A stretch of DNA of 23,198 nt, from the IMG/VR virus record IMGVR_UViG_648276650_000002, positions 1 through 23,198 of that record. The stretch is one strand, 5' to 3'. A program made the position numbers. Shown here piece after piece: positions 1 to 6,000 of the stretch. The DNA comes from a virus. Lineage: Duplodnaviria > Heunggongvirae > Uroviricota > Caudoviricetes. Each line of letters starts with the position of its first letter. Position 1 is the first letter of the stretch.

Positions 1-3000
1 GGGCCTATCAATGGGCCTAAAAGGTTCGGATTTAATTAGTTCTCTTCGGACTTCGCGGGACAAATTCAGGGCACAAAAAAGCCCGCAGGGCTTGCGCCGT
101 GCGGGCTCTTAGGACTTCATCGGATGACTCTGGTAATCACCGATGGAGAATTTTGGTGGAGCTGGCGGGAGTTGAACCCGTGTCCGAATAATGCTTAACC
201 TATTGAATATTAATGTTTTGTCTTTTTTGAAAGGCCTCAAGTGCATTTTACGTGCATATCGTGGTCCCTCTAACGTCCTGATTCCGTCCAACATTTTGAA
301 ATACTCACGACGCTACAGAGCTGCTGAAATGGCGGTTTTCCCGTCGTATTCAGCCAGGTATTTACCGTAATTGCGGAACAGCATTTCCGGCCCTTTATGC
401 CCCATCTGCCCGGCAAGCCAGAAAAGGTTTACGCCCTGGCTAATGTGTCTGGTGGCGAATGTGTGGCGGGTCTGGTACGGGTTACGGTATCGAACGCCAG
501 CTTTTTTGAGGGTTGGCACCCATGCTTTTTTTCGTATTGCGTCGGCGTTCGCCCAGGGCTCTCCCGTTTTAGGGTCGCTGAAAATAAACTCGCTTTTCAT
601 GAAAGTGAATTGTTTCTGCGCCTGCAGCGCGGCCAGCGCCTCGCTGTTTAATTCTACTTTACGGGTACCGGCTTTTGTTTTGGTGCCTTTCAGAACGCCA
701 ACAACACTCGCCGCCTGAACGTGAGCTGTTTTAGCGATATTGTCGAGATCAGGCCAGCGCAACGCACACAGCTCAGAGCTGCGTAAACCTGTATTGAATG
801 CGAAACGGAACAGGTTTTCCCATTCCGGATAACTGCAGCTCTGGTAAATGGCGCTGATTTCCGCTGGTGTGAACGGATCAACTTCGTAATCGTCACTATT
901 CGGGCTGCTGTCGATCACGTGGTACCGACTCGCGCTGACAAGGGTTACCGGGTTGATAGTCAGCAGGCCGTCTGTCACCGCTTCATCTATGGCGCTGCGC
1001 AGAAACGAGAGGTTATTCCTGATTGTTTTCAGCTTTGTTTTTCTGCTGGCGATCCAGTTTTTGAGGACCGCAGGGGTCAGTTCCGATACATGCATTTTGT
1101 GCAGCGCAGATAGCGCAGACAGGCACTTTTCATAACCGCCAATAGTGGACGGCGAAAGGTTGCGGTTCTGGCAGATTTTCAGATACTCGTCCAGGTAGGA
1201 CTTAATATTTTTGGTTTTCTTCACTACCCCGAACAGCTCCAGTTTTTTGGAGGTGGGGAAGTATTTCGCATAATCGAATGTGCCGCCGGCGATCTGATTC
1301 TGTATCTCCCCCAGCAGGCGCTCGGCATACTTCACGCCGCGCGCGTTTGCTTCCATTCTGGAAAGGGGCTCCCGGCAGAGAACCCCCTTGTAGGTGAATG
1401 TGATCACCAGGGTGTCGCCAGTTTTATGCTGGCGAATGGTTACTCCTCTTGGGAGAGATAATGATCCTTGTTCTTTCTTGCCCACTTTGAAACCTCCGTT
1501 AAGTCTATCCAGCGTTCTTTAACGCCATCGACTTTTAATACATGGACACCCTCTTTCCATAACCCCCTTTGTATCCGTTTGTTAACGGCTTCAACCGTTT
1601 CTCCGGCGTCCCGGCAGTAGGTTGAAAGTGGTACGCAATCAAGACTCATGACCGACCTCCCGCCCGAATGCCTGGGCATTTTCCAGTTCATTTGCCGCAT
1701 AGATAAGTGCGTTGTGGTGCGCTCTAAAACCGCCATCAAGTTCGCTGGCCGCTCTCTTGCGCAAAAAATCGATTGCAGCCTGATAGTCTTCACTGGCTGG
1801 CAGATCTCCCACGAGCATCAGCATGTTTTCCGGGTCGACAGGGATGGTGGTGAGCCCCAGCTGCTTGGCCTTCGTTGCCAGACGGGTCCAACGCTTAATA
1901 ATTTCTGAAACTGGCTTATTCATGGAGCGCCTCGCTACCTCACCAAAAATTTATATTCAATCAGCGCGCCGATAACGGTGGCCGCCAGTAGCAGGGAAAC
2001 AATGATGCTGAAAGTGAAGGGCTTCATCATTTCACCCCTGCTGGTTTGATGGCCTGCAGTGCATCAACCTCTTTAACGAATCGGTCATGCATCGCGTCCC
2101 ATTTCTCACACCATTTCTCCATTTCTCGCTTGCGCGCCAGGATACGACGCAGACGGCGAACACAACGCTGGTGGGCGGCCAGATACTCAGCCTTTGTTTC
2201 CCCGTCTCGCCATACCTCCATATCATCGCGATCAATACGCACTCGCGGGTGACGCTGTGGAAAACCTGAACGCTCAAAAGCCTCGGTGGTCATGAAGAAA
2301 GCCAGATAGCGGATCGCCGTATCGCGGGTGAAGCATTTTTTGACGCGGCCGTGACGGCGTGCCACGAACAACGGACCTGCCGGGGTATCATGTTGCTGTA
2401 ATGCCAGGTCGATTGCGCTGGCGATGCGTTTATCAGTCATTTTCTGTCCTTCAATTTTGAATAGCGTTCGTGGCTCATTACTTCCCAGCTCTGGCCGCCG
2501 TCGCGGGAAAGCAGGCGCCAGCGGAGATTCACACTCAGGCTCAGATAGCCAGTCTTGTGCATGCGGCGGGGGTGGATCCGCCCGGCGCGGTGCTGGCGCA
2601 GCACACGCACAGCCCTTTCGTGAACCCATTCAGGGATTCGGATCGCAGTAAGTGTCATGAATGCTCCTGCGTGATGGCCGCTGTTTTCTTAGCATGTTCG
2701 ACCAGCTCTGCCACAAGCTCATCAACCAGCAGCTTTCCGCTTTCAGTCAGGTATTCGCCATGACCATTCACATCAACTGCATTCCGGTACAAATCGCGGA
2801 TAGCTTTATCGCCTGCCACCGGGCCATGCTCACTTCGCGCCATTTTTTCAAACCGGCACAGAAGCCCGTCGAATAAAATCTCGGTCAGCTCCATGGTCGT
2901 TATTCCGCCTTTCGGAAGAGTAATAACAATGCAGGTTGTGCCTGTTTTACGTTGGTGGCGTAATAACGCTGCCTTTAAAATTCGGCGGCGGTAGGTTTCA

Positions 3001-6000
3001 ATTACGTTGTTTTTCACGACGTTCAAACTCCGAATCCATCCACATTGAGACCTGAGCCGACAAGTCAAGGCAGAGGCCAGACAGGGAAATTATTTGCTCG
3101 ATATCCATATCAATAATATTGGAGTTGATTAACTCCATTAATTGATAAAGGTTATCTGCTGTATTTTTTGCGGTTTCTAGAGAACTGTCTCTACTGAGCA
3201 TATTCAGACTCCGTAAGCTTTACGCATGAAAAGGTCAGATATATGGCGGTACTCGTCGCCATAGACCATAAAGAAAAGACATGCTGTTTTGTATGCCGCT
3301 TTATCGATTAACATTTACTTACCCATTTAAAAGTTGGTTAACGTGGTTGAGTAAATCGCTGTTGCATTCCCGCTATTTTTTTCATCAGGCCTGCATGTAG
3401 TAGTGGGTGAATCTCATCACATGTGGGCTTCCAGTCCTTAGCCTGTTGCATCTTGGCTGTGTGCCAGGCTAAGTGGGCTTCCTGTGTGGTGTTGAAAAGC
3501 CCAAGGTGTGAAATCTTTCCGTTTACGTTGATTCGTGCCCGAAACTTAGCGGACTGTTTATGCCAGATAACACCCTGTGGGTATTTCCCTCGTAAACGGG
3601 CGCGATCACCTGTAAATAAGTTAAGTGCTGGGGGAACAAATACGCAGTATTCAGGACCATATATCTTGTTACCATGGTGTAGCAGGTCCTTATCTAGCAC
3701 ATATCCATCGCGATAGTTTTCTTTCCAGAACGCCAGAAAGTTTGAGAATCGCAGCCACTCATCGGCAACAGTACATCCGGCGTAACTGTGCTCTAACTGT
3801 TCTGTGTGCGGTTTGTAGCAGCGAGATAACATGCCGCTCCAACGACGGTGAGCGCTGTGGTGGCACATTATTCCGTCGATGATAATAGTGCTGGGGAATT
3901 CTACGTCATAATGACCAACACCATACTCCAGGCTTTTTAAATGCCTACGCCGCGAAACTTTTGATTCAAGAAGACTATCTATTTCAGATTGGTTCATTTC
4001 AATCTCCTCTGAAATTTGGTTGCACGTATCCCCACCAGGGATGGTGTGATTTAAACTACCTATTAATTAATTTAATTTTATTTCGATGCTTTTCAGTAAT
4101 TCATGTACCTTAATGGTATTATCGAAAATAAGTGATGCCATCAGGCAATCAGCGTCATCACTGTCTTTTCCTGAAAAATATGATTCGTTATATACGTGAG
4201 CCAGTTCCCTGAGTTTTGCAGCGCTGACTGTGGCATAAAAAATATCATCGGCAATATCATCTCTATTCCCGATGGGGGGGTTAACTGTCTTTGCAGTATT
4301 TGCTAACTCTTCGATGTATGCGTAAGCTGTTTCACGGGTTTTATCGAAAGAGCGAATGAGGCAGGCTAAGCCGCAATCAGTTTCCTCGTTCATTTCTTCG
4401 GTGTTTCTATAAATCATTTCCAGAAGAGTATTGCCTTCGGAAATCTGAGCGACGATATCATGAAGCATGTCTAATGGAGTTTTCATTTATTCATTCTCCG
4501 GCCAATCATAACCAAGTTCATGGTTTAGAACAGAAAGATTATCCCTTAACTGATTGATACAAATTTTAATGAGTGCCGCTGGTTTATATGCAACATCTGG
4601 ATCTGATTCTGCGTACTCAAGCGCATTGATTACACGATCAATATCCATCGCAATTTTGTGGACAGTTCCGTTCTCGGAAAGCATTTTCTCTACATTCATT
4701 TCATAGGCTCCGTTGTCTGCTGATGAAGTGAATTTAGCAAAATGGTAAAAGCCATGCAAATGATAAATGCTAAATTATTTACTTTTTCTTTTATGTATTT
4801 GATAAATAATATAATTATTTATTATTATTCTTCGGTGGGCATAAAAAAACCCACCATCAGGTCGGGTGGGGGGGGGTAAAGATGGGGGTTACAGGGCGGG
4901 CATTTCATCATTGTCAACATAACGCGTATGCTTAACAATAGCTGAAACAAAATGCATTTTCTCGATGCTATCAGGACTTAAGGTGATGGGCCTGTGATCA
5001 CTGTTTACACTTGAGAATTGATAATCGCCATCGCGAGTTTTACTCATGATTTTTATCATGTTATGCCCATCTTTTGTTCGCACAAAAACCTCATCACCTG
5101 TATGAACTTGGGTGTTTGGCTCTATGACGACATATTCTCCAGACTGTATGCGTGGCCACATGCTGTCTCCCTTCACTTTCAGCCCATAGGCATCCCTATC
5201 CGCGCTGTATATTTGTAGCCATCCAGCGTGGATCTCTAGCATATCGATCATTCCGTCAATCCCAAGAATCGCTTCCCCTACAACTGGTACAGCTCCCGGA
5301 CGGACTGATCCGACATACTCCAACTCGCTTTTAATACTGCCAGGAGCATTGTGTGGACTATCCAGCCACCCAAACGGACGATCCAAGGCCTGTTCAATCT
5401 TTCTGGCCATTTTGTCCCCTATGTTTCGATGGCTATTGCCCCCAAGCAACTGGCTCAACTGGGCAGGGCTTATCCCGCACAATTCTGCGAAAGCTGCTTT
5501 TGTCGTATGTCTGTCGCGCTTCAGGAACTCAACAATGAGCTGCTCAAGGTTTGATTTGCGTATGCTTTTTATGTCCATGTCAAAATAATCTCATTATTTA
5601 GCAATGTGGTAAATACACAAACTGCTAAATGATTATTGCATTTAATTTAGCAAAAAGCTAAAGTTGATTCATTGCAACAGGAGACCGTAATGAACAACCA
5701 ATTACTTGCTTGGCGTAAGTGCTCAACAAAAGAGCAGTGGGCAGATCTTGCTAAAAAATCAGGCACATCTCCGGGATACCTGAATCTCATTGCTTATGGT
5801 CATCGCAATGCTTCCCCCAGACTGGCATTGGCGATCGAGAGCGCATCAAAGTCATTCGTGAATAAGCCAGTTATTACAAAAGAACAGTTGGTTTTCAAGA
5901 GCGGTTCTGAGGTGTGATATGTCGCACTCGATCACTACCGAAAACCAAGTTAAGCCATTGGATATCGATTATCGCGATCCGCGCGGTGTGATTGTGCATG

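Follow-up and report, generated by a model that had tools for sequence, protein, structure and literature searches.

The viral DNA analysed here (the window: 23,198 nucleotides (nt), positions 1 to 23,198 of IMG/VR record IMGVR_UViG_648276650_000002) is a segment of a lambdoid prophage or phage, with an integrase gene (int), an excisionase gene (xis), a run of small minus-strand genes, a cI repressor gene and rightward genes. Its minus-strand interval 1639-3201 forms the promoter-distal section of a leftward early operon in an HK97-like lambdoid prophage and holds six tightly packed co-directional genes, which we name after the lengths of their products in amino acids (aa): p67, p120, p73, p137, p31 and p94. 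With moderate confidence, we interpret p73, a very basic protein predicted to adopt a minimal toxin-like fold, as an early effector comparable to RegB or Kil, encoded within a mosaic early-left arm that has neither Red nor N functions, and p120 as its modulator. The arm itself has normal lambdoid architecture (compact, mosaic and accessory) and changes no existing picture; the cassette of p120 and this minimal RelE/ParE-fold protein is its sole element of wider interest. The two genes of the cassette are as follows.

2655 to 3017, minus strand: p120, GTG start at 3017; phrog_1737 match spanning positions 1-115 of 118 (E = 1.3e-47).
2437 to 2658, minus strand: p73, very basic, with a minimal predicted fold of the RelE/ParE superfamily (HigB-like); PF24732 and phrog_1525.

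p73 matched the Pfam family PF24732 (ParE-like toxin domain) at 73.5 bits (cutoff 24.4; E = 1.4e-20) over positions 1-67 of 67, and phrog_1525 at E = 1.8e-29. PF24732 was present in all 82 p73 homologues, and at E <= 0.001 an exhaustive profile search returned 127 representative clusters, with lengths of about 70-80 aa in nearly all. The family is not new to the databases: it is catalogued as PF24732, and 'ParE family toxin-like protein' is the name given to close relatives of p73 by UniRef and, in some cases, by NCBI. No paper came up in literature searches under PF24732 or 'ParE family toxin-like'. An AlphaFold2 (AF2) model built from 24 homologues reached a predicted local distance difference test (pLDDT) score of 87.5 and has the order beta-alpha-beta-beta-beta-alpha. 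When this model was compared with the PDB in Foldseek, the top matches were nearly all toxins of the RelE/ParE superfamily, the best being Vibrio cholerae YafQ (probability 0.96, E = 0.058), with Agrobacterium tumefaciens YoeB/ParE, Mycobacterium tuberculosis RelK, Escherichia coli YoeB, Proteus vulgaris HigB, GraT, PaaA2-ParE2 and the RelE-like Cami1 also at the top. Superfamily members have one or more N-terminal helices against an antiparallel sheet of 3-4 strands and a helix at the C-terminus; membership of p73 in the RelE/ParE fold is supported at moderate strength by this predicted structure.

A weak, ungapped phmmer alignment of p73 with P. vulgaris HigB (E = 0.12) pairs H29, W47-R48 and Y66 of p73 with His54, Trp72-Arg73 and Tyr91 of HigB. 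Among HigB variants, cleavage is affected most by H54A and Y91A (PMC5027501). When the HigB catalytic set (His54, Asp90, Tyr91 and His92) is read onto p73 through this weak alignment, Y66 is near-invariant and position 29 is variable. Two residues, A16 and R48, are invariant across the broader family, Y66 is nearly so and H63 is commonly retained, with the consensus WRLLSxDxGxxWxLMSHExYN. p73 resembles HigB, RelE, YoeB and YafQ in its predicted fold, in its basic charge and in the alignment of W47-R48 and Y66 with W72-R73 and Y91 of HigB, but differs from the HigB/RelE toxins in being shorter (73 aa, where the toxin chains that it matched have 83-99 aa) with a single N-terminal helix, in having no adjacent antitoxin of the HigA, RelB, YefM or DinJ type, and in being embedded in a phage early operon rather than an autoregulated two-gene operon.

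The partner gene, p120, had been called at 79 aa in the original prediction; that call was mis-started, and the gene encodes about 120 aa from GTG 3017. The short form, which starts at ATG 2894, covers only positions 41-115 of phrog_1737 (E = 1.3e-26), database homologues are 119-123 aa long with a conserved N-terminus, and the reading frame upstream of ATG 2894 is kept at the protein level in divergent homologues (consensus MxNLIxTYRRRILKAALLRHQRKTGSxCIVIxLPKGGIxTxELTEI). Because this upstream frame is conserved and the phrog_1737 match is nearly full-length, the apparent 103-nt gap between p67 and the '79-aa' gene (2895-3017) is coding, which exposes a common mis-annotation in which the phrog_1737 gene is called at 79 aa behind a false 103-nt intergenic gap. 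CDS0043 (240 nt) of Escherichia phage SaltyDalty was deposited with the same short start. The 40 N-terminal residues of p120 are basic (isoelectric point (pI) 11.5) and the remainder is acidic (pI 5.1); an hhalign comparison found no relationship between the p120 and p137 families.

Gene neighbourhoods were compared in 114 loci, namely 112 with a p73 relative (32 genomes and 80 viral contigs), sampled as the best-scoring relatives, and two annotated phage regions; dereplication left 100 distinct neighbour triples. p120 is the most faithful neighbour of p73 in lambdoid loci, lying at most two genes upstream of it in 103 of the 114, and in a reciprocal sample p73 lay downstream of p120 in 74 of 78 p120 loci, with p137 there instead in the four exceptions. 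A further gene, X (phrog_340; acidic, 64-100 aa, pI 4.4-4.8; for example at 6258-6512 of locus L001), is absent from the window, which either lost it or never had it. Directly upstream of p73 the 100 dereplicated lambdoid loci carry X in 74 cases, p120 in 22 and other genes in four. The C-terminal part of X weakly resembles the C-termini of anti-repressors.

These neighbourhoods could also be taken to mean that p120 (or X elsewhere) and p73 form a type II toxin-antitoxin pair, in which p73 is neutralised by direct binding and the pair serves prophage maintenance or abortive infection. A small upstream gene followed, across an ATGA overlap, by a small basic gene with a RelE/ParE fold would suit such a pair, as would the strong and reciprocal co-occurrence of p120 and p73, the basic N-terminus and acidic C-terminal part of p120, the acidity of X, the in-frame p120::p73 fusions found in public assemblies (P0171, P0191 and P0202, with three different junctions) and the labels 'toxin antitoxin system protein' or 'HigB-like' that some annotators give to p73 relatives. 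We nevertheless consider this explanation unlikely. Profile and fold searches against Pfam, NCBIfam and the PDB found no antitoxin-type domain (ribbon-helix-helix (RHH), helix-turn-helix (HTH), Phd/YefM or AbrB) in p120, X or p137, and PADLOC gave no match. A conserved cognate antitoxin next to the toxin is a feature of type II modules, but the gene immediately upstream of p73 relatives varies among X, p120, a ParB-like gene and a DnaQ-like exonuclease gene. Such a module must moreover be expressed in the lysogen, whereas this cassette sits in a repressor-controlled operon and no promoter of its own was detected. The data do not support a canonical toxin-antitoxin pair, because the genes next to p73 relatives change in phages that are P2-like, satellite-like or possibly virulent; the occurrence of relatives in the last of these groups itself argues against such a pair.

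Divergent p73 relatives on metagenome contigs belong to the early operons of elements that are P2-like, satellite-like or ParB-linked. They have other neighbours there, whose roles as given here are readings of sequence unconfirmed by family searches. One recurrent block (loci L124, L129, L140-L153, L161 and others) runs from a DnaQ-like exonuclease of about 190 aa through the p73 homologue and a Dam-type methylase to either a cytosine methylase or a P2 gpA-like replication protein, and has the look of a P2-like prophage early operon. Other divergent relatives stand before a putative primase of about 890 aa in satellite-like elements or after a ParB-like gene; in the left arm of Serratia phage OS31, likewise, the p73 homologue adjoins a ParB-like gene. 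Homologues also occur in Murrayvirus KMB41, near its lysis cassette, and in other phages of about 42 kb that are possibly virulent. The recurrence of the divergent relatives in early operons with other neighbours, together with the relatives in Murrayvirus-type and other possibly virulent phages, supports the reading of p73 as an early effector.

The same loci bear on whether p73 is strictly of the ParE type, poisoning or modulating DNA gyrase or another replication target and so aiding the switch to phage replication. Gyrase activity is the defining trait of ParE. The family bears a ParE-like name in Pfam and NCBI, ParE2 is among the weaker Foldseek matches, and divergent relatives lie directly beside replication genes (primase, P2 gpA-like protein and Dam/Dcm methylases), so that p73 has some likeness to the ParE of ParDE and PaaA2-ParE2. 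We regard this explanation as very unlikely, however, because the RNase-type members (YafQ, YoeB, RelK and HigB) rank above ParE2 among the structural and sequence matches and the conserved Arg, His and Tyr look like RNase-type sites; in addition, p73 has no ParD-like or PaaA2-like partner, the RHH protein ParD being absent upstream of it and p120 having neither an RHH nor a ParD match.

The candidate for the repressor-controlled promoter of the operon is the following.

4733 to 4774: candidate OL/pL, a pair of inverted TTTAGCA half-sites located downstream of cI.

Three further copies of TTTAGCA lie between cI and cro (5597-5652) and another at 5749; six of the seven matches to the heptamer in the window fall in 4733-4774, in 5597-5652 or just inside the cro-like gene, which suggests that the two clusters are the OL/pL and OR candidates. 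Eleven co-directional leftward genes form the run from the candidate OL/pL to xis-int. A promoter and terminator scan, which was consensus-based and which a weak promoter could escape, showed no enrichment, placed no sigma-70-like promoter before p120 or p73, and gave a total below the shuffle expectation. Rfam searches of 1639-3201 at the gathering threshold or E <= 0.1 found no RNA family and no nut- or put-like element.

In the mechanism that we propose, p120 and p73 would be the core cassette of 1639-3201, and p73 would be made only after induction because the operon sits behind a repressor-controlled pL. The lambdoid kil genes, which serve early host shutoff, illustrate that harmful early products need no antitoxin, and a harmful p73, likewise encoded behind a repressor-controlled early promoter, would need none either. 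The early target of p73 would then be nucleic acid of the host or the phage, with ribosome-associated cleavage or binding of mRNA as the most plausible action, and p120, with its two oppositely charged parts, would be the modulator or partner of p73 in lambdoid phages. The closest functional analogy for p73 is T4 RegB, an early phage endoribonuclease for which no antitoxin is known; RegB has a fold like that of RelE/YoeB, rapidly inactivates mRNA, probably on the ribosome, and has two histidines as its potential catalytic residues (PMC3014915). This analogy concerns mode of action and not family membership: no sequence similarity between RegB and p73 was detected, RegB was absent from the Foldseek matches of p73, and p73, unlike RegB, is found mostly in temperate phages. 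Only tentatively do we extend the proposal to the PF24732 mini-proteins at large, which could be widespread RelE/HigB-fold effectors of phage early operons without a canonical antitoxin and the temperate counterpart of T4 RegB; they would cut or block ribosome-bound mRNA right after induction or infection, redirecting translation, with p120, sometimes fused, tuning the activity in lambdoids. If p73 proves to act as an RNase or in host shutoff, the RegB paradigm would gain an example from temperate phages, in many of which such a mini-protein lies within a repressor-controlled early operon with no fixed antitoxin; not every prophage 'ParE family toxin-like protein' should then be counted automatically as a toxin-antitoxin defence system.

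Several observations weigh against a RegB- or Kil-like role for p73 with p120 as modulator. The structural matches of p73 are weak (template modelling (TM) scores of 0.45-0.55 and E values of 0.06-1, none below 0.001), and PDB sequences searched with the p73 family profile yielded nothing significant, the single-sequence HigB match being lost. Position 29, which faces His54 of HigB, is not conserved, and equivalents of Asp90 and His92 are absent; p73 is thus a putative RNase at most. The literature searched mentions the family solely as a 'HigB-like' annotation (PMC7556043). No fold could be recognised for p120: Foldseek searches of its AF2 model in the PDB and BFVD returned nothing better than weak winged-helix-like matches (E > 0.2), only one of the five models was confident, and the p120 family profile likewise found nothing significant among PDB sequences. 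In 74 of the 100 dereplicated loci X stands between p120 and p73, overlapping the start of p73 by 29 nt, and since the loci are best-scoring relatives some of the co-occurrence of p120 and p73 may be plain synteny. The fusion evidence is weak because in-frame fusions also join p67 to p120 (P0174 and P0164), and the fusions may be either natural or indel artefacts at overlapping junctions. The operon structure and pL are, finally, predictions from sequence.

The partial conservation of the HigB-like catalytic set would also suit a p73 that is a non-toxic, repurposed RelE fold, either an RNA- or DNA-binding early regulator or a decoy against host defence toxins of the RelE/HigB type, as would its being shorter than canonical toxins, with one N-terminal helix, and its persistence without a fixed partner in many phage types. 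We think this improbable: the strong conservation of the SHE.YN motif and of the beta-sheet face suits an active site no less than a binding surface, and Rfam detected no RNA element in 1639-3201 for such a regulator. An early effector modulated by p120 is the interpretation of p73 that we retain.

The four other genes of the chain, given here in the order in which they follow one another leftward, are the following.

2998 to 3201, minus strand: p67, acidic (pI 4.3); phrog_8959 (E = 3.6e-30); exact sequence on 575 contigs.
2027 to 2440, minus strand: p137, basic (pI 10.0); phrog_1886 (E = 7.2e-65).
1935 to 2030, minus strand: p31, a 31-aa hydrophobic single-helix peptide (grand average of hydropathy 1.45), ATGA-coupled to p137.
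1639 to 1923, minus strand: p94; phrog_36586 (E = 9.4e-63); overlaps xis by 11 nt.

The original prediction described five to seven small packed ORFans joined by ATGA overlaps, without homologues of Exo, Bet, Gam or N; the chain and these absences hold, whereas the word 'ORFan' and one gene boundary were wrong. Six genes lie in the interval, within the predicted number. In the chain, stop and start codons overlap as ATGA at three junctions and no more (p120/p73, p73/p137 and p137/p31); elsewhere p67 and p120 overlap by 20 nt, p31 and p94 are separated by a gap of 11 nt and the p94/xis junction is an 11-nt overlap (ATGAGTCTTGA) rather than ATGA, so that the description of the chain as joined by ATGA overlaps applies to part of it only. 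The close packing runs on into xis (1649..1440) and int (1485..313), which overlap by 46 nt. Shine-Dalgarno-like GGAG, GAGG or AAGGA motifs lie 6-10 nt upstream of most starts, and the short overlaps would allow translational coupling. Since ATGA junctions also occur in the right arm (9330 and 13230), they point to general genome compaction and to nothing peculiar to the leftward arm. We do not accept as a gene a 200-aa open reading frame (ORF) at 2027..2629 that runs over p73 in a different frame, since every p137 homologue begins at MTDKR or MNDKR, which corresponds to ATG 2440.

Nor are the chain genes ORFans, because they belong to widespread conserved phage families. Five of the six (p67, p120, p73, p137 and p94) match PHROG families at E values of 1e-27 to 1e-65, and the exact sequences of the 67-, 73-, 137-, 31- and 94-aa proteins and of the 79-aa form of p120 occur on 35-575 public contigs each. 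Profile and structure searches, which had been named as the check, did place the proteins in known families, but these families are uncharacterised and p73 alone has a recognised fold (ParE-like/HigB-like), so that the refuting outcome named beforehand, known lambdoid early proteins, came about in a weak sense only; the chain genes are best described as catalogued, widespread and uncharacterised phage families. p137 has an invariant Arg-rich C-terminal stretch (AHQRCVRRLRRILARKRE), and its family profile had no match among PDB sequences and no structural or family annotation. p31, which could be a small membrane-active peptide, has tblastn matches in nine related loci, and its exact sequence occurs on 312 contigs. 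p94, variable at its N-terminus and conserved in its C-terminal half, was found in every related locus with an xis at least 97% identical, and probably belongs to the integration/excision module.

Upstream of the chain, the leftward arm carries four further genes.

4487 to 4697, minus strand: first leftward gene, acidic product of about 70 aa (MNVEKML...); pI 4.6, 2.9% Arg.
4067 to 4486, minus strand: p139, a conserved phage protein; phrog_27579 (E = 1.3e-73).
3338 to 3997, minus strand: p219, AP2-domain/HNH-endonuclease-like; phrog_953 'HNH endonuclease' (E = 5.9e-80), with a weak Pfam AP2 match.
3204 to 3314, minus strand: p36, a small conserved protein (...YRHI.NLFMRKAYG); peptide conserved in 35 of the 114 loci.

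The first leftward gene had no Pfam or PHROG match. A two-codon mini-ORF (ATGAAATGA) at 4695-4703 on the minus strand overlaps its ATG, right after a GGAG. p219, which the source records name 'AP2 domain-containing protein', was found in just one of the 114 related loci, which suggests a mobile insertion of the homing-endonuclease type, and it is probably an inserted mobile gene. p31 and p36 had no family match, although both peptides are conserved in related loci. NCBIfam and PADLOC searches of ten leftward proteins gave nothing of note, only RelB/DinJ for p67 (sub-threshold, E = 0.063) and Lit for p139 (E = 0.019).

As had been predicted, no Exo/YqaJ, Bet/RecT/Erf, Gam or N-like protein was found in Pfam, PHROGs or NCBIfam among the 11 leftward proteins encoded between cI and int. 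In lambda, the stretch just upstream of xis carries small ea/orf genes, so exo, bet and gam are not expected exactly at 1639-3201. The first gene after the candidate pL is acidic and hence no N analogue. The prediction was also right that the 73-aa protein is Arg-rich (13 Arg residues, 17.8%; pI 11.7) without being first in the operon. As an N-like antiterminator, p73 was rejected on its fold, on its operon position and on the lack of a conserved N-terminal arginine-rich motif. Late antitermination in the window is of the Q type (PF03589). The arm was compared with the early-left arms of HK97-like Hendrixvirinae, namely Serratia phage OS31, Escherichia phages LMessi and SaltyDalty and Cronobacter phage phiES15. 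It is like a lambda-type early-left region in the order of int-xis, small genes and cI, in orientation, in tight packing and in mosaic exchange, but unlike lambda it has no detectable equivalents of exo/bet/gam, kil, cIII or N and begins with an acidic pL gene product of about 70 aa.

The suspicion that the operon is a mosaic of accessory functions is supported by the variable neighbours in the 114 loci and by a shift in GC content near 3000. About 190 related loci form a mosaic in which modules are swapped at gene boundaries. Relatives of p120 occur in 103 of the 114 p73 loci, of p137 and xis in 47 each, of p94 in 43, of p36 in 35, of p139 in 29, of p67 in 16, of p31 in nine and of p219 in one. 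The downstream neighbour of p73 belongs to 13 families among the 100 dereplicated loci, and the ATGA junction after p73 is nonetheless kept in 69 of them, across at least six different downstream families; p137 directly follows p73 in 45 of the 114 loci, ATGA-coupled every time. Varied neighbours behind a kept ATGA junction are the pattern expected from module exchange at gene boundaries. The GC content is 53-54% at 1500-3000 and 39-44% at 3000-5000, and this step near 3000 marks a module boundary at the p67/p120 junction. p67, p137, p31 and p94 are probably accessory modules of this early-left arm, which is assembled from interchangeable modules.

Beyond the leftward arm, the window carries the following genes.

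313 to 1485, minus strand: tyrosine integrase (int), an ORF called integrase in matching records; its start overlaps xis by 46 nt.
1440 to 1649, minus strand: excisionase (xis); phrog_2917 'excisionase' (E = 2.1e-40), the same name being used by the source records.
4889 to 5578: cI-type repressor with HTH and S24 peptidase domains.
Divergent from cI: cro-like HTH gene, with a DUF4222 protein also there.
ORF where SaltyDalty annotates an O-like replication initiation protein; no Pfam match here.
Rightward arm, listed just ahead of the Q-type antiterminator: Toprim/DnaB-like primase-helicase.
9330 to 10166: Q-type antiterminator (PF03589).
Right arm: holin and lysozyme genes.

Directly after the cI stop, a hairpin (CCCACC...GGTGGG) followed by a run of seven T lies at 4842-4866 on the minus strand, a short way upstream of the TTTAGCA half-sites at 4733-4774; the hairpin was missed by the automatic scan and is likely the intrinsic terminator of the cI transcript. 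The closest DNA relatives of the window are Escherichia phages LMessi and SaltyDalty, in patches 90-94% identical, and Cronobacter phage phiES15 for xis and int. None of the E. coli genomes covers more than 35% of a 2-kb query, and the nearest p73 and p120 relatives and exact-sequence matches are mostly in Enterobacter and also in Kosakonia, Citrobacter and others; the host of the prophage was probably a member of the Enterobacter cloacae complex or a relative.

Four tRNA genes lie at 11351-11659, between the Q-antiterminator region and the lysis genes; to the one at 11430-11503 ARAGORN assigns no amino acid, and Rfam is silent on it. An STnc100 small RNA (sRNA) match (71.7 bits) follows the tRNA cluster at 11878-12070. 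At the other end of the window, overlapping int at its 3' end, lies a partial, sub-threshold transfer-messenger RNA (tmRNA) match at 154-355 on the minus strand (30 bits, E = 2e-9), which fits a prophage at ssrA with a partial duplicate of the tmRNA 3' end, and a weak IsrM sRNA match lies at 75-163.

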